Source of the DNA: a virus
Lineage: Duplodnaviria; Heunggongvirae; Uroviricota; Caudoviricetes
Virus record (IMG/VR): IMGVR_UViG_2648501149_000023
Length of the DNA: 48,089 bases
Reading direction: 5' to 3' (one strand)
Part shown: positions 8,048 to 36,216 of the stretch, piece after piece
How positions within the stretch are numbered: the first letter of the stretch is position 1
How the letters are laid out: each line of letters begins with the position of its first letter
Position numbers and translations under genes: made by a program
Notes under the pieces: generated by a model
What the model was told of the DNA's origin: nothing
The model's input: the letters and a program-made list of their open reading frames with translations, nothing else
Databases searched by the model: none

Positions 8048-8701
8048 TTAACTAAATGTCTCTTCAGGCCACTGGCTGGCGATAACTTTCCCTACTACGG
8101 AACAGCTATCATTGCATGGGATCATTGGATATTGCGGGTTTAGTGGTTGTAGGAACACCTGACCGCTATCCCTGATCAGTTTCTTGAAGGTAAACTCGTC
8201 ACCACCAAGTCTGGCTATGCAGAAATCACCTGGCTCAACAGCCTGCTCAGGGTCAACGAGAATTAACATCCCGTCAGGAAAGCTTGGCTTGGATCCTGTT
8301 GGTGCGGTCATGGAATTACCTTCAACTTCAAGCCAAAACGCACAATCACTGGCTTTTTTGGTTGTGCTGACCCATCTCTCCGCATCGCCTTTGGTAAAGG
8401 TTCTAAGCTCAGGCGAGAACATCCCGGCCTGAACATGAGAAAAAACAGGGTACTCATATTGTTTTTTAACGGGGGCAGATGAGTATTCGCCAACAGGTGA
8501 AAATGTACCGTCGTGGTTGAATGAGACGTTATCAATACCAAGGTATTTAAACACCACACCAATCTCGTCAAGAGATGGATGACGAGATCCGCGCAACCAG
8601 TGACCAATTCCACCCTGCGTCATACCAAGCTCTTCAGCTAACTTCTCTTGAGTTATGCCGAGTTCTTTCATTCTGGATCTAGCCAGTTCATACCATTTCA
8701 T
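8048..8701 (-). CDS. cI: CI-type prophage repressor (HTH plus S24 LexA-like autocleavage domain)
   Basis: N-terminal HTH (...[21 protein letters not shown]...) and C-terminal S24 domain with G-N-S-M and F-K-K-L catalytic motifs (...[10 protein letters not shown]...[28 protein letters not shown]...); ATG at 8701 with AGGA at 7 nt spacing. Confidence 0.9.
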
Positions 8702-8818
8702 TTTCATATCCTTATTATTACGCTCTGTACTAAAACCATCCATGCACAAGATGTATTTTTTGTTTGCATTCCAAAAGTACATGTCGTATTATTGTTTCAT
8801 GGTTACTATGGAGGGCAT
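8702..8818. promoter_or_regulatory. OR / pR / pRM divergent control region
   Basis: 117-bp interval between divergent cI and cro starts with repeated AAAAGTACA-type elements; operators not individually resolved. Confidence 0.5.
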
Positions 8819-9143: not shown

Positions 9144-9443
9144 ATGGAACAAACAAGTTACAGCAAACTATCACAGAGCGACGTTGATCGCGCAGAAACA
9201 GATTTACTCATCAACCTGTCAACGCTTACCCAGCGCGGTCTGGCAAAGATGATTGGCTGTCATGAATCGAAGATAAGCAGAACGGACTGGAGATTTATTG
9301 CTTCGGTCTTGTGTGCTTTTGGAATGGCATCAGACATCAGTCCAATTAGCAGGGCTTTTAAGTATGCGCTTGATGGACTCACCAATAAAAAACGCCCGGT
9401 GTGCAAGACCGAGCGTTATGAACAAATCCAGATGGAATTTTAA
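9144..9443 (+). CDS. cII: CII transcriptional activator
   Basis: 99-aa product ending ...TNKKRPVCKTERYEQIQMEF, matching the lambda CII C-terminus (...TNKKRP...EQIQMEF). Confidence 0.85.
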   Translation: MEQTSYSKLSQSDVDRAETDLLINLSTLTQRGLAKMIGCHESKISRTDWRFIASVLCAFGMASDISPISRAFKYALDGLTNKKRPVCKTERYEQIQMEF

Positions 9444-9465
9444 CAACATCCAACGAGGTAATTAT

Positions 9466-15017: not shown

Positions 15018-15637
15018 GACTCGAAAGCGTAGCTAAATTTCATTCGCCAAAAAGCCCAATGATGAGCGACTCACCACGGGCTACGGCTTCTGACTCTCTT
15101 TCCGGTACTGATGTGATGGCTGCTATGGGGATGGCGCAATCACAAGCCGGATTCGGAATGGCTGCATTCTGCGGTAAGCATGAACTCAGCCAGAACGACA
15201 AACAAAAGGCTATCAACTATCTGATGCAATTTGCACACAAGGTATCGGGGAAATACCGTGGCGTTGCAAAGCTTGAAGGAAATACTAAGGCAAAGGTACT
15301 GCAAGTGCTCGCAACATTCGCTTATGCGGATTATTGCCGTAGTGCCGCGACGCCGGGCGCAAGATGCAGAGATTGCCACGGTACAGGCCGTGCGGTTGAT
15401 ATATCAAAAACAGAGCTGTGGGGGAGAGTTGTTGAGAAAGAATGCGGAAGATGCAAAGGTGTCGGCTATTCAAGAATGCCAGCAAGCGCCGCATATCGCG
15501 CTGTAACGATGCTAATCCCAAACCTTACTCAACCCACCTGGTCACGCACTGTTAAGCCGCTGTATGACGCTCTGGTGGTGCAATGCCACAAAGAAGAGTC
15601 AATCGCAGACAACATTTTGAACGCGGTCACACGTTAG
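15014..15637 (+). CDS. Q: Late-gene antiterminator Q (lambda type)
   Basis: 207-aa product MRLESVAKFHSPKSPMMSDSPRATASDSLSGTDV... matches lambda Q almost residue for residue (recall). Confidence 0.95.
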   Translation: MRLESVAKFHSPKSPMMSDSPRATASDSLSGTDVMAAMGMAQSQAGFGMAAFCGKHELSQNDKQKAINYLMQFAHKVSGKYRGVAKLEGNTKAKVLQVLATFAYADYCRSAATPGARCRDCHGTGRAVDISKTELWGRVVEKECGRCKGVGYSRMPASAAYRAVTMLIPNLTQPTWSRTVKPLYDALVVQCHKEESIADNILNAVTR

Positions 15638-29214: not shown

Positions 29215-30564
29215 ATGGCTACGTGGCAACAGGGTATTAATTCTGGTGGTTTTCTGGCTGGCATCGGTACGCAAAATGAGAATGCGCCAAAGGCAAGCGA
29301 CATTAACGCAACGCTTGGTCTGATCCGCGAAAACAATGAACTGGCTCGCTCAGGTGCAAATAACGTTGGTCTGACCGCGTTACGTGGTCTGGCTGGAGTT
29401 GCTGATATTTACAATCAGGAACAGCAACAGAAAGCGATTAGTGCGTTCAATAAGGTTCACGCTGATGCATGGGCTTCTGGTGATCCATCGGGACTATTTA
29501 AGTTTGCCCAGGAAAATCCAGCGTTTGTTGCACAGGCACAACAGGCGTTTTCTGGTCTTAATGATCAGCAACGCAACGATATGGGCGATTTAGCCATGAG
29601 GGCTAACGTCGCTCTTTCTCAGGGACCGGAAGCCTACAGTAAATTCATTACTGACAACAAGGACAGGTTAAATCGCGTTGGTGCTAATGCTGACTGGATG
29701 ATTCAGACAGGTATCCAGAATCCAGAGCAGCTATCACACATGCTGACTACTATGTCTCTCGGTGCGCTTGGGCCAGAAAAGGCGTTTGCTGTTCAGGACA
29801 AGATGGTTGGTCGCCAGCAGGAGCAGCAAAGAATTAACGAAACCATTCGCAATAATGACATGACGAATGCGAGGGCTATTAGGGGGCAGGATCTTTCCTA
29901 TAAGGCTCAAATGGCAAGACTGAATCACGACAAGTATGTGTTTAAGCAGTCACAGGCGGCCCTTGAAAGAGCAGGACAACTTCAGGATATGGATGTTTTG
30001 TCTCTTAACTCACAGATAGCAGCGACGGGAATTGATCCTCTAACCGGTAAAGCTGCAACGTCAGCCAGAATGTCTCAGGCTAAGAGATGGCTTGATGGCA
30101 ACAATAATTACAACAATGCGTTGATTACTGGTGAGCGAGGGATAGAGAAAATAGATTCTTTGCTTGGTAAGAAGGAGCTTGAAGGTATCGGTCGCTTCGA
30201 AGGAAGAAATATAGATGGCTTCACAAGTGCTGAAGGGCTTGCAAACCGTAATGCGATAGAAGAATTAAAGTCGGGTGCGTTTGTCCAGAACGTGCAGACT
30301 ATGCGAGGTATGGGTAGCCTCTCCAATGCTGAAGGCCAAAAACTGGAAAACCTGATCGCGAAACTCGATATAACACAGCCTGAAGAGGTCGTCAGAAAAC
30401 AGTTATCTGAAATACGATCTCAATATTCTGTATTTCAAAAGGTTGCAGCAAGGGAGGCTGAATCAATGGGATACAGTTCATCAGGTTATGACACATATGT
30501 TAGTGAGCGAAAATCAGGAAGCGACAGCAATAAGTCCGGTTTCTCGTCTTTATGGGGTGATTAA
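29215..30564 (+). CDS. Ejection protein (P22 gp20-like)
   Basis: 449-aa ORF at the gp20 position; synteny and size. Confidence 0.6.
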
Positions 30565-32438
30565 TGGCTAAAGCATGGAAAGATGTTATCGCTTCTCCAC
30601 AGTATCAGGCGTTAACTGAAGAACAGAAAGCACAGGCTCAAGCGCAATATTTTGATGAGGTTGTTGCCCCTAAGGCTGGTGACAAATGGGCTGAAGCAAG
30701 AGATCAGTTTTATGCAGCATACCCTCCGCCTCAGCAGCAGAAAGAAGAACCATCATTGATGCAACAAGCTGGCGATTGGCTCACTGGTGGTCAAAGTGCA
30801 GGGCAAATTGCAGAGCAGGCTGGTCGTGGTCTGGTAAACATACCATTTGACGTATTGCAGGGTGGCGCAAGTCTGATTAATGCAATCAGCCAGGGGCTTG
30901 GTGGCTCCAAGGTTTTGGATGATGTTTATCGCCCTGTCGAGCGGCCGACAGACCCTTATGCGCAAGCTGGAGAAACAATTGGCGGGTATTTAGTTCCAGG
31001 AGTTGGAACGGCAGGAAGCATGGCTATTGGATCACTGGCAGAGGCCGCAAATCAGAAAGGCGATTTCGCACAAAATGCAGCCAAAAATGCCGGAGTTAAC
31101 CTTGCCGCTCAGGGTGTTCTTTCCGCAGCAGCAAAGGGAATAGGGCGTGGAATAACGGCTATAAAAGGTGATATTGCGCCAGAAGTGGCGAAGAAAATTG
31201 CCACATCAGAATCGATGGGCGTGACACCAATGACATCTGATGTTATCCCGCCGAAAAATGCTTTCACTCGTGGCCTTACTCAGGATGCCGAGGGGGCTTT
31301 GCTCGGGACAGGCTCAAAGAGAGCGGAGCAATATGCAACGCGTAGTAAACTGGTAAGCAATTATTTTGACCGTTTTGGTGAGTACAACCCTGATGATGTG
31401 GTGAAATCTCTTACCACCACGTTAAGGGGGCGGAAGGATGCCGCTGGCGCTGTTATCAATGACGTCACCAATAAAATGGGTAATGCCGCAGTTGATACCA
31501 CAAATACCATGAATGCTCTGAATACAGCGATCGCAAGACAGGAACGGCTTGGGACGTCTGCCAATCAAAGCCTGCTTACATCCTTGCGTAACCTACGTGA
31601 AGAATTAGCAAACCCTGCAACTGATTTGGATGTTACGTTTGATCTCTTGCGTCAGCACAGAACAGCATTTAGATCTAATGTTCAGGGAGATGCTATGGTC
31701 TTCCCCAACCAGGCAAAAGCAGCTACCAATATGGTAGAGAATGCAATGTCAAAAGACCTTCGTAACGCAGTTGCTAAAAACCTCGGTGCATCAGACGCAG
31801 CAAAATACCTTAAAGCAAATTCCGATTATGCAAACGTTTATAATAAGGTGCTTAATAAAAACATTGCCAACAAGCTCAACAAGGCAAGCAGTGAAGCCAG
31901 TCCTGAACTTATAAATACCGTTGTATTAAGCAGAAAACCATCTGACGTGAAACGAATCTGGAGCGCACTGGATGATAAAGGGAAAGATGCTATGCGTGCA
32001 GCTTACGTCAGCAAAATAGCGGAAAAGGCCGGCGACTCTCCAGCCAAGTTCATCACTGAAGTTAATAAGCTGAAATCTCAGTCAGGAGGTGAAATTTACA
32101 ACACTATTTTTTCTGGAAAGCACATGAAAGAACTTGATGCTCTTAATGAAGTTCTACAGCAAACAGCAAGGTCAGACACCGCAAATGTAGTAACTCAGAC
32201 GGGGCAATCGCAAGCCAACAGGATAAGGACGATTGGCGCAACTGCGACTCTTGGCGTATCAATGGGGCTTGAGGCTGGTTTCGGTGCAATGATGCGCTTG
32301 TATGAGTCCAAAGCAGCAAGGAATGCGCTCTTACGTCTGGCAAACACTAAAGCTGGAACGCCAGCCTATGAAAGAGCGCTGAATAACGCCGCAAATGCCA
32401 TCAGACCAATACTTGCCAATGATGCAACTGATCGCTAA
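30564..32438 (+). CDS. Ejection protein (P22 gp16-like)
   Basis: 624-aa ORF at the gp16 position; synteny and size. Confidence 0.6.
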
Positions 32439-32459: not shown

Positions 32460-33098
32460 TTAATTGCGAATGGAATCGCGGAACTCTTTGCTTGATAGAA
32501 AAGGATCTGTTCTCCTTAACTCATCATAGTTTTTATTAAACTTTCTTGCTTCACCTGGGTATCTGTTGAACAAAACATTGCAGAAAAAAGAGAGCAATAA
32601 CTCACATATGAATGCTAATACCCTGAAAAATAAAGGTATAAAAAGAAGGGAAGGTTCATTGAAGTCTCTATTCCAAACAAAATAGACAATCATCCCGACA
32701 TACCAAATTGATATCCCTATACTGATGATTGTTCCAACAGAGGTAACTACGATCCCGATTAAGTCGGACAGTCTGTTTGCCAGTAACTCATTTGAGTATC
32801 TTGCAATCATATACCGCCAACATTTTGCAATATCATCCTGATCTGTAGAGTCTTCTGGAATAGCTAGGCTTCTACATATTGAAGTAGCTCTTTTTTTCTC
32901 AACTCTTTTTGAGATCCATCCATTAAAGAGATACATCAACACCTGCGTTGCTATTCCTGCACCAAGTGATATCAAAGACATCCCCAAAAATCTCCATCCT
33001 GGAGATAGTGACTGGTACTGCCAAACAAAAAAAATTAAAAAACCCAATGAGCCTATGACATAGGCTGATGTATCGCTATATATATCTATTTTTTTCAT
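32460..33098 (-). CDS. Four-TM inner-membrane protein (SieA position; possible superinfection-exclusion or Abi effector)
   Basis: ATG at 33098 preceded by AAGGAG; four hydrophobic segments (YVIGSLGFLIFFVWQY, FLGMSLISLGAGIATQVLMYLF, LIGIVVTSVGTIISIGISIWYVGMIVYFVW, LLFIPLFFRVLAFICELLLSFFC); downstream of and co-oriented with the S24-like gene. Confidence 0.6.
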   Translation of the reverse strand: MKKIDIYSDTSAYVIGSLGFLIFFVWQYQSLSPGWRFLGMSLISLGAGIATQVLMYLFNGWISKRVEKKRATSICRSLAIPEDSTDQDDIAKCWRYMIARYSNELLANRLSDLIGIVVTSVGTIISIGISIWYVGMIVYFVWNRDFNEPSLLFIPLFFRVLAFICELLLSFFCNVLFNRYPGEARKFNKNYDELRRTDPFLSSKEFRDSIRN

Positions 33099-33162
33099 TG
33101 AGTAGCCACTCCTTAGTTTTGAGCAGAACACCGGATGATAATGTGTCGCTTCCTAAAGGATA

Positions 33163-33804
33163 TCAAAGCAACGGGATTTCAAGGTAAACTGCGGTTGCCA
33201 AAATACTAACATCTTCATTTCTAACAAGAATATTAGGATACATTGGGTTTAGGGATACTAAGTTTGTCTCTATTTCACCAATGTAAACCTGCTTGAAGCT
33301 CAATATTTGCTCTTTATCCAATGATGCTATTACATAATCTTTGCTTTTAGCTTTTACTAGAGGGCTGAACGTGACAACTGATCCTCTGGGAAAGCTAATA
33401 CCTGAACTTGTAGTCATAGCTTCACCTTCAATAGTCAATGCAAATGCAGAGTCACCAACATTGTATATTGCCGGATGAAATCTAGACGATGAATGTTCAC
33501 CTGTGTTTAGGTAATGCATAACTTCATCTAGTTTGAGGATTGGTATTTGCTTTACCAGAACGTCAGGCATGACGTTTTTTGTTCCAGGCCCCTGACCTTC
33601 ACCCAGAGCTAACCACTCAGCCGTAGTGCCTAATGCGTTGGCTAATGCCTGCAATACACGAAGCCGTGGTTTAGCCTCACCACCCTCGTATGCAGCTATT
33701 TGACGTTGAACAACACCAGCTAATTTTGACAACTGCGCCTGCGTCATACCCCTGGACTGTCTTGCCAGAGATACTCTTGATGGGAATTGATCGTCAAAAT
33801 TCAT
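33163..33804 (-). CDS. Repressor-like HTH plus S24 LexA-like domain protein with the catalytic Ser replaced by Ala
   Basis: N-terminal XRE-type HTH (...MTQAQLSKLAGVVQRQIAAYEGG...); C-terminal domain aligns with this window's own cI: IEGEAMTTS versus VEGNSMTAP (Ser to Ala) and LSFKQV versus FTFKKL (Lys kept); ends ...NPMYPNI like cI ...NPQYPMI. Confidence 0.75.
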   Translation of the reverse strand: MNFDDQFPSRVSLARQSRGMTQAQLSKLAGVVQRQIAAYEGGEAKPRLRVLQALANALGTTAEWLALGEGQGPGTKNVMPDVLVKQIPILKLDEVMHYLNTGEHSSSRFHPAIYNVGDSAFALTIEGEAMTTSSGISFPRGSVVTFSPLVKAKSKDYVIASLDKEQILSFKQVYIGEIETNLVSLNPMYPNILVRNEDVSILATAVYLEIPLL

Positions 33805-33903
33805 TAGTTCACCATAAAAAATTCATTGACTCATACTGAGTGTGAGTGAATAATCAAACTACAAAAAGTGAGATTATGAGTTTTTCAAAAACAGGAGTGC
33901 ATA
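33805..33903. promoter_or_regulatory. Divergent promoter/operator region between the S24-like gene and the arc-like gene
   Basis: 99-bp AT-rich interval with inverted/direct repeats (GACTCATA...TATGAGTT; ACTCA-tac-TGAGT). Confidence 0.4.
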
Positions 33904-34077
33904 ATGACTGAAAAGATATCTTCCATCAAGCCGCGTCAGGTTCGTTTTACAGAAAAGGTTGATTCACATATCCGCGAATCAGCAAAAAGATGCCATAGGT
34001 CAATTCAGGCAGAGATAGCTTATCGAATGGAGTTATTGATGAAACTTGAGGCAAAGGGCGATGTTGTCATCCAATAA
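33904..34077 (+). CDS. Arc/Mnt-family ribbon-helix-helix repressor (Arc-like, 57 aa)
   Basis: Hand translation MTEKISSIKPRQVRFTEKVDSHIRESAKRCHRSIQAEIAYRMELLMKLEAKGDVVIQ has an RHH-type pattern (beta strand, then ...RS...EI...); below the ORF-track cutoff. Confidence 0.55.
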   Translation: MTEKISSIKPRQVRFTEKVDSHIRESAKRCHRSIQAEIAYRMELLMKLEAKGDVVIQ

Positions 34078-34160
34078 AAATAGTGAAGCCCGGCAGTGCG
34101 CGAACACAAACCGGGCCTCTATGTCAGTAACCGTATGCAAGGAAACTAACATGAATATTG
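34078..34160 (-). ncRNA. Possible sar-like antisense RNA across the ant RBS (hairpin plus U-run on the minus strand)
   Basis: GCCCGG...CCGGGC hairpin at about 34084-34112 is followed on the minus strand by TTCACTATTTTTATTGG; the transcript would be complementary to the ant RBS and start codon; a TACAAT -10-like hexamer lies on the minus strand inside the ant 5' end. Start is not mapped. Confidence 0.3.
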
Positions 34161-34777
34161 TAGCAAAATCAGATTACAACTTCCACGGAGTTGAGTTGGT
34201 GCCCACCCGTGATATGCATGGTGTTTGGTTTACATCATCTAATATTGCATCTGCACTTAAATATGCAAATAGCCGTGCAGTAACAATGATTTATAACAAG
34301 TATAGCGATGAGTTTAGCGCCGGAATGACTCAGGTACTCGAAGTGAGTACCTCAGGAAATTATCGCAAAAAAGTGCGAGTTTTCTCACTACGCGGTGCCC
34401 ACCTAATCGCGATGTTTGCTCGCACTCCGGTAGCCAAAGAGTTCCGCCGCTGGGTGCTGGATATTTTGGATCGGCAGGCAGAATGCTCACCGATTGCAAA
34501 ACAGTTTACTGACGAAGAACTGGTTAATCTCTGCTACTTACAATTGTGGATGGAGAAGAGTCAACAAATGTGCAAACACATCTACCCAGGAATGAAGCAA
34601 ATTGGTTCTGAGCTTTCAGGAAGAATTTACGATATTGCATATGAGACTCGCTATATGTCAGAAGAAACCAAGAAATCACTTCTTCGTGAAATGAAGAATC
34701 TTGATACCAACAATTTTGTCGTAAAGAACGCTCAGCCAATGCTGACAAAACTGCGCGGCGAGGAATGGATTCATTGA
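34151..34777 (+). CDS. Antirepressor with Bro-N/AntA-type N-terminal domain
   Basis: ATG at 34151 preceded by AAGGA; ...FHGVELVPTRDMHGVWFTSSNIASALKYANSRAVTMIYNKYSDEF...KVRVFSLRGAHLIAMFARTPVAKEFRRWVLDIL... fits the Bro-N pattern (recall). Confidence 0.65.
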   Translation: MNIVAKSDYNFHGVELVPTRDMHGVWFTSSNIASALKYANSRAVTMIYNKYSDEFSAGMTQVLEVSTSGNYRKKVRVFSLRGAHLIAMFARTPVAKEFRRWVLDILDRQAECSPIAKQFTDEELVNLCYLQLWMEKSQQMCKHIYPGMKQIGSELSGRIYDIAYETRYMSEETKKSLLREMKNLDTNNFVVKNAQPMLTKLRGEEWIH

Positions 34778-34865
34778 TTGGTGCGCCGGACGGCGCAAAA
34801 AGAAAACCGCCAGTGTGCTGCTGGCGGCCTATGTCACACCCTTACTACCACATAAGGAATGCCTA

Positions 34866-35591
34866 ATGACTTTGAAGAATGTAGCAAACATCGGATCCGT
34901 TGTCACGGATAAAACCATTGACAGCCAAAGTCTTCTGATGATGGTTAATGAAGCTCGCAAGTTATGTGGAGAGCCATCAGTACGTAACAACAAATTCATC
35001 GAGAAAATTGAGGATGAATTGGAGGGCGAGACCTACACAAAAAGTGTAGGTCGGAAAAACGGGGCTGACATTGATGTTATCTCCATGACTATCAAGCAGG
35101 CGCTTCGTGTTGCTGCTCGCGAATCTAAAGCAGTTCGCCGAACACTTGTAGACAAACTTGAAAGTATGCAAGAAGCGCACATTAAAAGCGGTAAATCGTC
35201 GAGTGGACTTGTTGAGTATCGCCAGGCTCGAACATTGAAAATGACGGTTGAAGCTGTTACCAATCTGTTAGATTTGATGCCAAATCTTGCGCCGGAAGCA
35301 AAGCAGACTGCGGCAGCAAGCATAATCAACCCGATAGTTGGTTTTAATGCAATACCTCTTCCAGCAATAGAAGAGCATTACTACTCAGCAGGGGAGGTTG
35401 CAGAGCAGCTTGGAGTAACGGCAAACAAGATTGGTCGCATTGCTAACGCAAACAACCTCAAAACTGAGCAGTACGGGAAGTTCTTCTTGGATAAATCTGC
35501 GCATTCAAGCAAACAGGTGGAAGCATTCCGCTACAATGCGGAGGGTGTTAAAGCACTACAACACCTGATTCATGGGAGCAATGTTGCATAA
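34866..35591 (+). CDS. Hypothetical immI-region protein (242 aa; possible antirepressor-associated or Rha-like)
   Basis: ATG at 34866 preceded by AAGGA; weak resemblance of ...EARKLCGEPSVRNNKFIEKIE... to Rha-type N-termini; function unassigned. Confidence 0.45.
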   Translation: MTLKNVANIGSVVTDKTIDSQSLLMMVNEARKLCGEPSVRNNKFIEKIEDELEGETYTKSVGRKNGADIDVISMTIKQALRVAARESKAVRRTLVDKLESMQEAHIKSGKSSSGLVEYRQARTLKMTVEAVTNLLDLMPNLAPEAKQTAAASIINPIVGFNAIPLPAIEEHYYSAGEVAEQLGVTANKIGRIANANNLKTEQYGKFFLDKSAHSSKQVEAFRYNAEGVKALQHLIHGSNVA

Positions 35592-35812
35592 TGGCAAAGA
35601 AAAGATATGGCATTATGCCGCCAAGAATCAAAGGAAGAGCCAGGGTAAAAGGAGATGCTGGAAGGTATCACATTCTTGGAGTTCTGTGGCATGAGAGAGC
35701 TTTAATTTTAAGTAGACCTCATGGGTACATTGAAAAGGTATCTATAGATAGAGTAGAGATTCTTCCCCTTACACCTGAAGAAGAAGAAACGTACGGACTT
35801 TTTGATAACTAA
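35591..35812 (+). CDS. Hypothetical small protein (73 aa)
   Basis: ORF overlapping the upstream stop; followed by a strong terminator. Confidence 0.4.
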   Translation: MAKKRYGIMPPRIKGRARVKGDAGRYHILGVLWHERALILSRPHGYIEKVSIDRVEILPLTPEEEETYGLFDN

Positions 35813-35821
35813 CCAACTAAA

Positions 35822-35850
35822 CCCGCTTAATTGCGGGTTTTTTCTTTTCT
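35822..35850 (+). terminator. Intrinsic terminator (ACCCGC/GCGGGT hairpin plus T-run)
   Basis: ACCCGCttaattGCGGGTTTTTTCTTTTC just after the 35591..35812 ORF; the minus-strand Mnt-like gene ends within it. Confidence 0.7.
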
Positions 35851-36084
35851 AAGGATATCAGCCACAACTTCTTTTACTCGTTCCGAGATTAATGAGGCCA
35901 GCCTCTCTTCTTCATCACGATACCCGCTTACAGGTGATGGTTTGGAGAGTGATTCTTCCATCGTAGCCACAATTTCGGAATTGATAGACCTGTTATTCAT
36001 TTTTGCACGTTGCTTAATCTTAGCGTGCAACTCGTGCGTAAGCCTCAAGTGGAACTGCGCCTCATCGTATTTGCTGTACATCAT
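35827..36084 (-). CDS. mnt: Mnt-like ribbon-helix-helix repressor (85 aa)
   Basis: ...AQFHLRLTHELHAKIKQRAKMNNRSINSEIVATMEESLSKPSPVSGYRDEEERLA... parallels P22 Mnt (...RSMNSELLQIVQDALSKPSPVTGYRND..., recall); ATG at 36084 with GGTGAGG RBS. The longer ORF-track version (to 36558) runs antisense into the tailspike gene start. Confidence 0.7.
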   Translation of the reverse strand: MMYSKYDEAQFHLRLTHELHAKIKQRAKMNNRSINSEIVATMEESLSKPSPVSGYRDEEERLASLISERVKEVVADILRKEKTRN

Positions 36085-36216
36085 CAATGCCTCACCAAAT
36101 GGGTGGAATGGCATCGTAAAACCTACTGTACAAATCAACAATCGTACCATTTCGGTATGCAACAAACACCAACCGTAGCCATGCTTCGGTGATTCCTTGT
36201 ATCTGGAGCAAATTAA

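Follow-up and report, generated by a model that had tools for sequence, protein, structure and literature searches.

Genetic organization of the locus

The 48,089-nt tailed-phage DNA IMGVR_UViG_2648501149_000023 (the window hereafter, meaning the whole stretch analyzed) harbored, around positions 33805 to 36084, a region that was assigned, with a probability of about 0.7, to the immI or "ant moron" locus of a P22-like (Lederbergvirus) Escherichia coli prophage of the HS-1/JEP4 type, composed of two adjoining modules. These were predicted to be (i) module 1 (33163 to 35850), a self-contained antirepressor operon in which a CI/LexA-like repressor and a 57-aa ribbon-helix-helix (RHH) protein would stand in for Mnt and Arc, and in which ant and the 241-aa gene behind it would each be faced by a cis-antisense RNA, and (ii) module 2 (35827 to 36216), an orphan mnt gene that, with its own conserved control region, would be independent of module 1. 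What the analysis showed directly were the genes present, their homologies, and the conservation of RNA structure and of promoter elements. The six open reading frames (ORFs) that a preliminary description had listed for the region, together with a minus-strand hairpin plus U-run, were all present at the coordinates given (ORF list and sequence reading); its reading of the region as an immI-type antirepressor region was upheld, and the three repressor-type genes it had named (S24-like, 57-aa RHH, and Mnt homologue) all proved real.

In this P22-like prophage, the region was flanked by the DNA-ejection gene 16/sieA and by the tailspike gene (ORF list and PHROG): a 624-aa DNA-transfer protein (30564 to 32438) and a SieA-like gene (32460 to 33131; phrog_7745) lay on the left, and a tailspike gene with a P22-type head-binding N-terminus (start 36217) lay on the right. 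The same slot in the P22 annotation had the order gene 16, sieA, mnt, arc, sar, ant, and gene 9. A 3.2-kb stretch was ~97% identical to Escherichia phage JEP4 (Lederbergvirus), and at least 80% of this stretch was covered in 26 complete E. coli genomes; E. coli HS matched with 99% identity over 88% of the query, the remainder being interrupted by IS3. E. coli HS (hit H51) and LCP17S3 (L003, 4267 to 5480) had an IS3-family element separating the 73-aa gene from mnt, and the window had none. The slot was named "ant moron" by Villafane et al. (2008), the E. coli HS prophage "HS-1" included, and for the CUS-3 and HS-1 types the apparent lack of arc despite putative antirepressor genes led to the suggestion of a control unlike that of P22 (PMC2629481). 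The locus type is already catalogued (HS-1 ant moron), and its regulation was left open in that literature.

A predicted diverged sar in the spacer upstream of ant

The spacer between the 57-aa RHH gene and ant was predicted, from its anatomy, from covariation, and from a leave-out covariance model, to encode on the minus strand a ~75-nt diverged sar (antisense RNA 1; 34073 to 34150). The predicted 5′ end, G34150, adjoined the ant ATG; a 5′ hairpin with a 16-nt loop carrying the anti-Shine-Dalgarno (anti-SD) motif UUCCUU was followed by a terminator hairpin (minus strand 34119->34085; GAGGCCCGGUUUGUGUUCGCGCACUGCCGGGCUUC) and then by ACUAUUUUUAUU, which overlapped the stop codon of the 57-aa RHH ORF. 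The terminator scan missed this hairpin because its loop rule admitted 3 to 8 nt only. For the surrounding 141-nt stretch, the minus strand had a folding energy of -44 kcal/mol (z -3.5), a value that none of 200 shuffles reached, versus -33.4 kcal/mol for the plus strand (z -1.5). A Psar-like promoter (Psar1) was predicted inside ant codons 3 to 12 (34157 to 34186, minus strand), with the place and spacing of P22 Psar: it displayed an extended -10 TGCTACAAT (34165->34157) in ant codons 3 to 5 and a weak -35 GTGGAA (34186->34181). Among 47 distinct sequences, the third positions of ant codons 3 to 7 were conserved at 0.91 to 1.00 versus ~0.5 from codon 12 on, which fits a promoter on the opposite strand.

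This anatomy was shared with P22, where sar is annotated at 15021 to 15090 on the minus strand and Psar at 15097 to 15125 inside ant, and where Psar reads TGCTATACT plus ATTCAT plus G; the window had its counterpart at the same place and spacing. Common to the two were (i) TGCTAnAnT plus ATTCATG, the latter leading to the mapped P22 5′ end, (ii) a 5′ stem of 5 to 6 bp with a 16-nt loop containing the anti-SD, and (iii) a terminator ending at the upstream stop codon. The Rfam sar model (RF00262; gathering threshold 43 bits, and 97.8 bits for P22 as positive control) gave no match in the window at E<=10, and intermediate spacer types from the same position scored 59, 48, 39, 29, and 28 bits with it.

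Thirty distinct spacers, taken from a census of 80 viral contigs encoding Ant homologues, could be aligned with those of the window and P22. RNAalifold applied to this 30-spacer alignment gave two helices with 14 pairs, 6 of them with compensatory changes; paired cells made up 98.3%, compared to 91% in shuffles and 28 to 60% in slid controls. Canonical cells numbered 413/420 when read on the minus strand versus 347/420 on the plus strand, where the 68 G-U cells became A-C mismatches, and all 30 spacers folded better on the minus strand (means -31.3 versus -20.6 kcal/mol). A leave-out model, R2, built from P22 and 19 spacers, none of them of the window type, matched the window at 34067 to 34150 (minus strand; 56.2 bits, E 2e-8), and no other match in the 48 kb was significant. 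The hairpin is more than a chance feature; it was kept with compensatory changes in 30 distinct spacers of related phages. The preliminary description had noted that this hairpin stood where a possible sar-type antisense RNA would cover the ant ribosome-binding site (RBS), and the R2 match, the covariation, and the conserved promoter upheld that view: the hairpin is the terminator of a diverged sar-family RNA, as a predicted transcript.

An Rfam match of symR at the sar position (E 0.77) was at chance level and was rejected as a family assignment. Elsewhere in the window, sar-derived covariance models gave weak matches (E 0.4 to 1.6) at 9373 to 9444 on the minus strand, where a hairpin plus U-run lay at the 3′ end of a cII-like ORF (9144 to 9443), the position of an oop-type antisense RNA in lambdoid phages.

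A probable second antisense unit opposite the start of the 241-aa gene

A minus-strand terminator and a minus-strand promoter near the start of the 241-aa gene together predicted another ~75-nt RNA (antisense RNA 2; 34797 to 34871, minus strand), complementary to the start codon and RBS of that gene and backed by the terminator scan, by its fold, and by 28 spacers. It displayed a 5′ hairpin closed by GUC/GAC and a terminator hairpin (34830->34804) followed by UUUUCUUUUU; the promoter scan placed its predicted promoter, GTGACA-17-(TGC)TACATT, in codons 5 to 14 of the 241-aa gene (34878 to 34906, minus strand), with the extended -10 TGCTACATT in codons 5 to 7. A small GC-rich hairpin, GTGCGCCGGACGGCGCA, was observed at window 34781 to 34797, just past the ant stop codon and upstream of the terminator of antisense RNA 2; its sequence varied among otherwise identical loci.

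The sequence comparison was extended to 80 further loci fetched with a 66%-identical homologue of the 241-aa protein as query. The -35 GTGACA and the extended -10 TGnTAnAnT were kept in 61 distinct 5′ regions, across which the 17-nt spacer was constant in length and free in sequence apart from the TGn before the -10, and the residues encoded over the promoter changed (NVA, NLA, SLP, and NLS). In 28 distinct homologous spacers, the terminator stem was paired in 100% of 250 cells over 9 pairs, 3 of which showed compensatory changes, with G-U pairs on the minus strand only, and the two-hairpin fold (5′ hairpin closed by GUC/GAC, then terminator) recurred across sequence types. No Rfam family matched antisense RNA 2. 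Its reading as a sar paralogue was rejected, since the broad sar model R1 missed it at E<=10, and for the same reason it was placed in a separate family with sar-like architecture. The searchable literature yielded no account of an antisense RNA facing the gene that follows ant and none of experiments on the HS-1/JEP4 cassette. The 241-aa gene probably has a sar-like antisense unit of its own opposite its start, the second in the operon; as a prediction it is new here, and the RNA probably belongs to an undescribed family, though one of a familiar type.

A different account of both hairpins would have them as mere leftward terminators, or as recombination "boundary" linkers between modules, giving rise to no discrete antisense RNA. 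Both hairpins lay exactly at mosaic junctions, a "boundary sequence" is marked where the tailspike gene begins in the phage CUS-3 record, and Psar1 was unreported by the simple promoter scan because of its weak -35. Against linkers of this kind stood extended -10s (for antisense RNA 2, the -35 too) that were conserved at fixed distances within coding sequence, at synonymous sites and through amino-acid changes; moreover, the architecture equals that of the experimentally mapped P22 sar, and the 5′ hairpin with its anti-SD was conserved as well. The linker explanation was judged unlikely, and the prediction of two discrete antisense RNAs was retained. Several points weigh against them: (i) the U-run of antisense RNA 1 was interrupted and began 4 nt past the stem; (ii) the -35 of Psar1 was poor, and the promoter scan did not call this promoter; (iii) the Rfam sar model failed to reach the window element even at E<=10; (iv) for antisense RNA 2, covariation was found in the terminator stem only, the 5′ hairpin being backed only by per-sequence folds; and (v) for both RNAs, the covariation counts came mostly from related prophages, so that the events were not independent.

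Exchange of regulatory cassettes and a probably separate mnt module

The sequence comparison of the 80 census loci was consistent throughout. The S24 protein and the window-type RHH protein co-occurred in every locus that had either, including a diverged pair in L068 (39% and 37% identity), and the alternative at the same position was an mnt-like/arc pair, the junction coinciding exactly with the stop codon of the RHH gene. The whole part to the left of this codon was exchanged in ACN001 and LCP17S3, which had there a (truncated) mnt-like gene together with another control region and another 57-aa Arc (24% identical), and the sar spacer and ant continued unchanged. The divergent mnt-like gene was annotated as truncated in two loci (L002, 2655 to 2801; L003, 2058 to 2210) and had no C-terminal tetramerization region, with arc-sar-ant intact. 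The downstream Mnt homologue accompanied either left-hand cassette. In L016, two tandem immI cassettes were found, S24rep-RHH-ant-241aa-73aa and then a P22-type mnt-arc-ant, with two different antirepressors. Judged from these junctions, the S24/RHH pair is an allelic swap for mnt/arc.

The Mnt homologue of the window (35827 to 36084, minus strand) was composed of an Arc-family RHH domain (Pfam Arc, 54.6 bits) and a Mnt-type C-terminal region, and it was 43% identical to P22 Mnt over its full length, including SKPSPVxGYR..ERLA; the Mnt-like label that this last small gene had received beforehand was thus well placed. It converged on the ant operon and diverged from the tailspike gene and, unlike P22 Mnt, was not divergent from Pant. 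The 36085-to-36216 intergenic region between mnt and the tailspike gene was conserved, with a ~60-nt block that was nearly invariant among the window, Salmonella phage VSe13, and Shigella phage Sf101, the Mnt protein of Sf101 being only 62% identical. This region probably holds the mnt promoter and operator. A candidate Pmnt (TTGTTG-17-TACGAT; 36141->36113, minus strand) was found by eye only; a promoter scan and reading of 36085 to 36216 gave no convincing sigma-70 promoter facing the tailspike gene. Within the invariant block, at window 36109 to 36150, two inverted ATGGYA..CG boxes stood around a central TGTACA palindrome; these boxes, likewise found by eye only, are a candidate operator for the orphan Mnt. 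In Sf101, nothing but the mnt homologue separated gene 16 from the tailspike gene, and in VSe13 the homologue stood directly before the tailspike gene. An orphan mnt-like gene of unknown role has also been reported in phage L (PMC8022706).

All three repressors, Mnt, the S24-like protein, and the RHH protein, might instead act on the same ant promoter in one circuit, adding a layer over P22 immI; this was in essence what the preliminary description had proposed when it counted an extra regulator in the locus. Three regulator genes did bracket the ant operon within 3 kb, and Mnt represses Pant in P22 (annotation). Yet the window mnt ran convergently toward the operon, at a distance of 2 kb from the operon promoter, the same mnt with its control region stood beside the tailspike gene in phages without ant and beside either left-hand cassette, the mnt position of L016 was followed by its own arc-ant, and the two intergenic regions (36085 to 36216 and 33805 to 33903) had no common 7-mer. 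A single circuit was accordingly considered quite unlikely and the extra regulator was not confirmed; the evidence favors two units, an S24/RHH-controlled antirepressor operon and a separate tailspike-proximal mnt module.

The S24-like repressor and the divergent control region

The P22 mnt position was occupied in the window by the gene for a CI/LexA-like repressor (33163 to 33804, minus strand; Pfam and PHROG), which contained an HTH_3 domain (48.4 bits) and a Peptidase_S24-like domain (47.9 bits), both above the Pfam cut-off. The protein was aligned with the lambda-CI-like immC repressor of the window (8048 to 8707) and with P22 C2, and a family alignment was made too. Its active-site motif was GEAM (IEGEAMT) where others had GNSM/GDSM, so that Ser was changed to Ala and Lys was kept; no Ala-Gly was present at the aligned cleavage site (LDEVMHY versus VQAGMF), in a linker whose alignment is unreliable. 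In the family alignment, the Ser was lost in the window clade and, independently, in P0172 and in the 39%-identical L068 homologue, the latter having neither Ser nor Lys. The LexA mutant S119A does not self-cleave; because the catalytic Ser is Ala here, RecA-stimulated self-cleavage of the S24-like protein is unlikely, and the protein is predicted not to be RecA-inducible.

The reverse possibility is that the protein is a RecA-cleavable, LexA-like switch, by which DNA damage would derepress ant and induce this or other prophages, a phage-encoded form of the Gifsy/186 Tum logic. Its helix-turn-helix plus S24 architecture scored above the Pfam thresholds, and most relatives at 40 to 50% identity, and one at 81%, kept GDSM plus Lys. 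With the nucleophile Ser changed to Ala, no Ala-Gly aligned with the cleavage site, and LexA S119A uncleaved, and with a main repressor (QAG, GNSM) that is probably RecA-responsive itself, such a switch was deemed very unlikely, and a probably non-cleavable repressor in the place of Mnt was preferred. That preference is weakened by the clade-specific nature of the Ser loss, as seen from the GDSM of the 81%-identical relative, and by the chance that the S24-like domain may have other roles.

Relatives P0162 to P0171 of the repressor, at 40 to 46% identity, kept the Ser-Lys dyad and were longer by ~60 aa at the C-terminus; these proteins might be truly cleavable and regulate antirepressor operons. 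The immC main repressor of the window (8048 to 8707, minus strand) had C-terminal domain motifs nearly those of lambda CI (QAG cleavage site, GNSM, and FKK), and the prophage itself is probably able to respond to RecA through this repressor, with no need of an antirepressor.

The divergent control region (33805 to 33903) was swapped as one block with both flanking regulator genes. It contained a Pant-like sigma-70 promoter (TTGACT-17-AATAAT; 33826 to 33854, plus strand; promoter scan, 10/12 matches), a palindrome ACTCATACTGAGT (33829 to 33841; palindrome search), and four TGAGT/ACTCA boxes versus 0.19 expected (a post hoc count), which overlapped this promoter; a leftward promoter candidate, TTGATT-16-TATGAG, was found within the region by eye only. 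The direct repeat AAAATTCATT occurred at 33796 to 33805 and 33818 to 33827, 22 nt apart, one copy overlapping the start codon of the S24-like gene and the other abutting the -35 of the ant-operon promoter. Neither a LexA box nor a P22-type Mnt operator was found in 33805 to 33903 or in 36085 to 36216 by eye, k-mer, and palindrome search.

The 57-aa RHH protein, a cryptic Arc

The first gene of the ant operon (33904 to 34077, plus strand) encoded a 57-aa RHH protein that was recognized through hhalign as a diverged Arc analogue. BLASTP of this protein against P22 Arc showed no similarity, and its Pfam matches to Arc (16.0 bits versus a cut-off of 20.4) and ParD_like (19.8 versus 23) were sub-threshold, which explains why arc was reported missing in the HS-1 type. 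With profiles, the 57-aa family aligned with Arc at 95.4% probability (E 1.7e-8) over 47 columns on P22 Arc residues 2 to 48, a stretch that spanned the strand, helix A, and helix B; the Arc profile comprised P22 Arc plus nine other small proteins from the same position in related phages. The best PDB profile match was the Arc-like regulator AmrZ (E 0.017). A PHROG match to Arc was likewise sub-threshold. The Pfam scores and an AlphaFold2 (AF2) monomer consisting of one long helix with no strand (pLDDT 84) count against an Arc, the monomer by itself being uninformative on a fold that needs the dimer. By its profile alignment the 57-aa ORF is nonetheless a cryptic Arc-family protein, and the earlier Arc-like label stood.

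Ant and the downstream genes of the operon

Ant (34151 to 34777, plus strand; Pfam and phrog_245) was composed of an N-terminal Bro-N domain (41.7 bits) and a C-terminal P22_AR_C domain (53.4 bits), both above the Pfam cut-off, and was assigned to phrog_245 "anti-repressor Ant" with E 4e-54; its likeness to P22 Ant was confined to the C-terminal 69 aa (29% identity). The protein is an antirepressor by domain content, and repressor binding is predicted.

The two following genes had been listed as unassigned in the preliminary description, and this could be revised. The first (34866 to 35591, plus strand) encoded the 241-aa protein of an antirepressor-associated family (phrog_1726 "anti-repressor", E 1.7e-100; no Pfam match) and had, as predicted above, its own antisense unit; the second (35591 to 35812, plus strand) encoded a 73-aa protein (phrog_4977, E 1e-53, with no function assigned there; no Pfam match). 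The 241-aa protein had 1970 homologues, mostly unnamed, a few being called "KilAC" or "antirepressor C-terminal". Its C-terminal ~63 aa resembled a MerR/RacA/Xis-like winged helix (AF2 pLDDT 72, moderate confidence; Foldseek); Foldseek on the model matched only this small winged helix with weak E-values, and a PDB sequence search with the family gave nothing meaningful. The 241-aa gene was directly downstream of an ant-type gene (Bro-N type or P22 type) in 62 of 68 distinct upstream contexts; in the remaining 6, the ORF in front either had no match to the two reference Ants or was not long enough for one. Translational coupling of the 241-aa and 73-aa genes is suggested by the overlap (ATAATG) of the stop of the former with the start of the latter. 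An NCBIfam scan of the six proteins added nothing.

An intrinsic terminator (35819 to 35850, plus strand; terminator scan) closed the operon where the 73-aa gene and mnt converge; its 8-bp stem ran into TTTTCTTTTCT. Rfam matches of Trp and Leu leaders at this terminator were at chance level and were rejected.

Module 1 could in principle be a decaying, non-functional remnant that is passively carried. The ant moron changes rapidly, and in several phages some of its genes are truncated or degraded (PMC2629481); related loci displayed IS3 insertions and a truncated mnt-like gene. In the window all ORFs were intact with good ribosome-binding sites, the cassette was 100% identical in >20 viral contigs and present in JEP4, a deposited complete phage genome, and the compensatory changes in both RNAs indicate ongoing selection. 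Decay was rated extremely unlikely.

Proposed regulation and its significance

In the proposed mechanism, the sigma-70 promoter at 33826 to 33854 would drive the 57-aa RHH gene, ant, the 241-aa gene, and the 73-aa gene. The S24-like protein, in Mnt's stead, would keep this promoter off in the lysogen, and the diverged Arc would autoregulate the operon after infection or derepression, as Arc does. The two ~75-nt cis-antisense RNAs would start from extended -10 promoters buried in the first codons of their targets; each would cross the start codon and the Shine-Dalgarno sequence and end at a hairpin plus U-run, the U-run of antisense RNA 1 overlapping the RHH stop codon and that of antisense RNA 2 lying in the spacer ~20 nt past the ant stop codon. 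For P22 sar, pairing with the mRNA has been shown to block ant translation; here, once sense transcription drops, antisense pairing would block translation of both ant and the 241-aa gene, through one diverged member of the sar family and one member of a separate family with the same architecture. In module 2, the orphan Mnt would regulate itself and possibly transcription entering the tailspike gene. This scheme has its own weak points, for every binding event, both transcripts, and the regulatory logic are inferred, and only position was used to assign targets to the S24 protein, the RHH protein, and Mnt.

P22 immI is a textbook system, for repressor-operator recognition with Arc and Mnt and, with sar, for one of the first antisense RNA controls. 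The present comparison suggests that the HS-1 type keeps the P22 logic with diverged or replaced parts, namely a dead-protease CI-like protein for Mnt, a cryptic Arc, and a sar beyond the reach of the Rfam model, and that the P22-type antisense logic was duplicated for a second, widespread, uncharacterized gene after ant. If true, the Rfam sar family would be extendable, a new small-RNA family would exist in prophages of Klebsiella, Salmonella, Serratia, and E. coli, and nature would offer, for a single conserved operon, a collection of repressor/operator cassettes that can replace one another. A wider generalization was put somewhat below even odds: the antirepressor operons of many enterobacterial temperate phages may share a conserved core of two genes, ant and the 241-aa phrog_1726 gene, with a separate cis-antisense RNA silencing each (that of the latter from a family absent from Rfam), as a dual lock separately controlling both proteins, and in sister lineages with a Ser-Lys S24 repressor the operon may be directly SOS-inducible by way of this phage-encoded LexA-like protein. 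Antirepressors are able to induce other resident prophages, and therefore their control bears on prophage induction and gene transfer in enteric bacteria.

Comparison with known systems

P22 immI, with which the preliminary description had compared the locus, showed no nucleotide collinearity with it. The two loci shared the slot between gene 16/sieA and the tailspike gene and the same logic (a divergent maintenance repressor, a small RHH protein as first gene, an antisense RNA over the ant RBS, and an antirepressor), as well as an antisense RNA (predicted in the window) starting beside the ant ATG and ending at the RHH stop codon and an Ant with a P22AR_C domain. They differed in that the divergent repressor of the window was a helix-turn-helix plus S24-like protein instead of Mnt, its RHH protein had no BLASTP similarity to Arc, its Ant began with a Bro-N domain, ant was followed by two more genes and a predicted second antisense unit, and mnt was displaced to the tailspike side, convergent on the operon. 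Antisense RNA 1 and sar (RF00262) had in common their position, orientation, promoter type (TGnTAnAnT in ant codons 3 to 5), ATTCATG start context, and two-hairpin fold with the anti-SD in the first loop, some intermediates exceeded the Rfam threshold, and the model built from intermediates found the window element; the terminator stem of the window was longer and rich in G-U pairs, and the curated model did not match it (E<=10).

The HS-1 ant moron (Villafane et al. 2008; PMC2629481) was essentially identical to the window locus; arc was apparently lacking in that account, whereas the present comparison recognized a cryptic relative of Arc, a homologue of sar, and a predicted second antisense unit. 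The orphan mnt of phages L/ST64T, Sf101, and VSe13 had the same gene and the same conserved intergenic block upstream of the tailspike gene, with no arc-ant between, while in the window mnt was preceded by a complete antirepressor operon of another type. In the Gifsy GfoA/GfhA and coliphage 186 Tum systems, repression by an S24-family protein (LexA) keeps the antirepressor gene silent; the S24-family protein of the window differs in being phage-encoded and without the nucleophile. In P1 immI (c4 RNA-icd-ant), the antirepressor is held off by an antisense RNA; c4 is a processed trans-acting RNA, while the predicted antisense RNAs of the window would be cis-encoded opposite the ribosome-binding sites of their targets.

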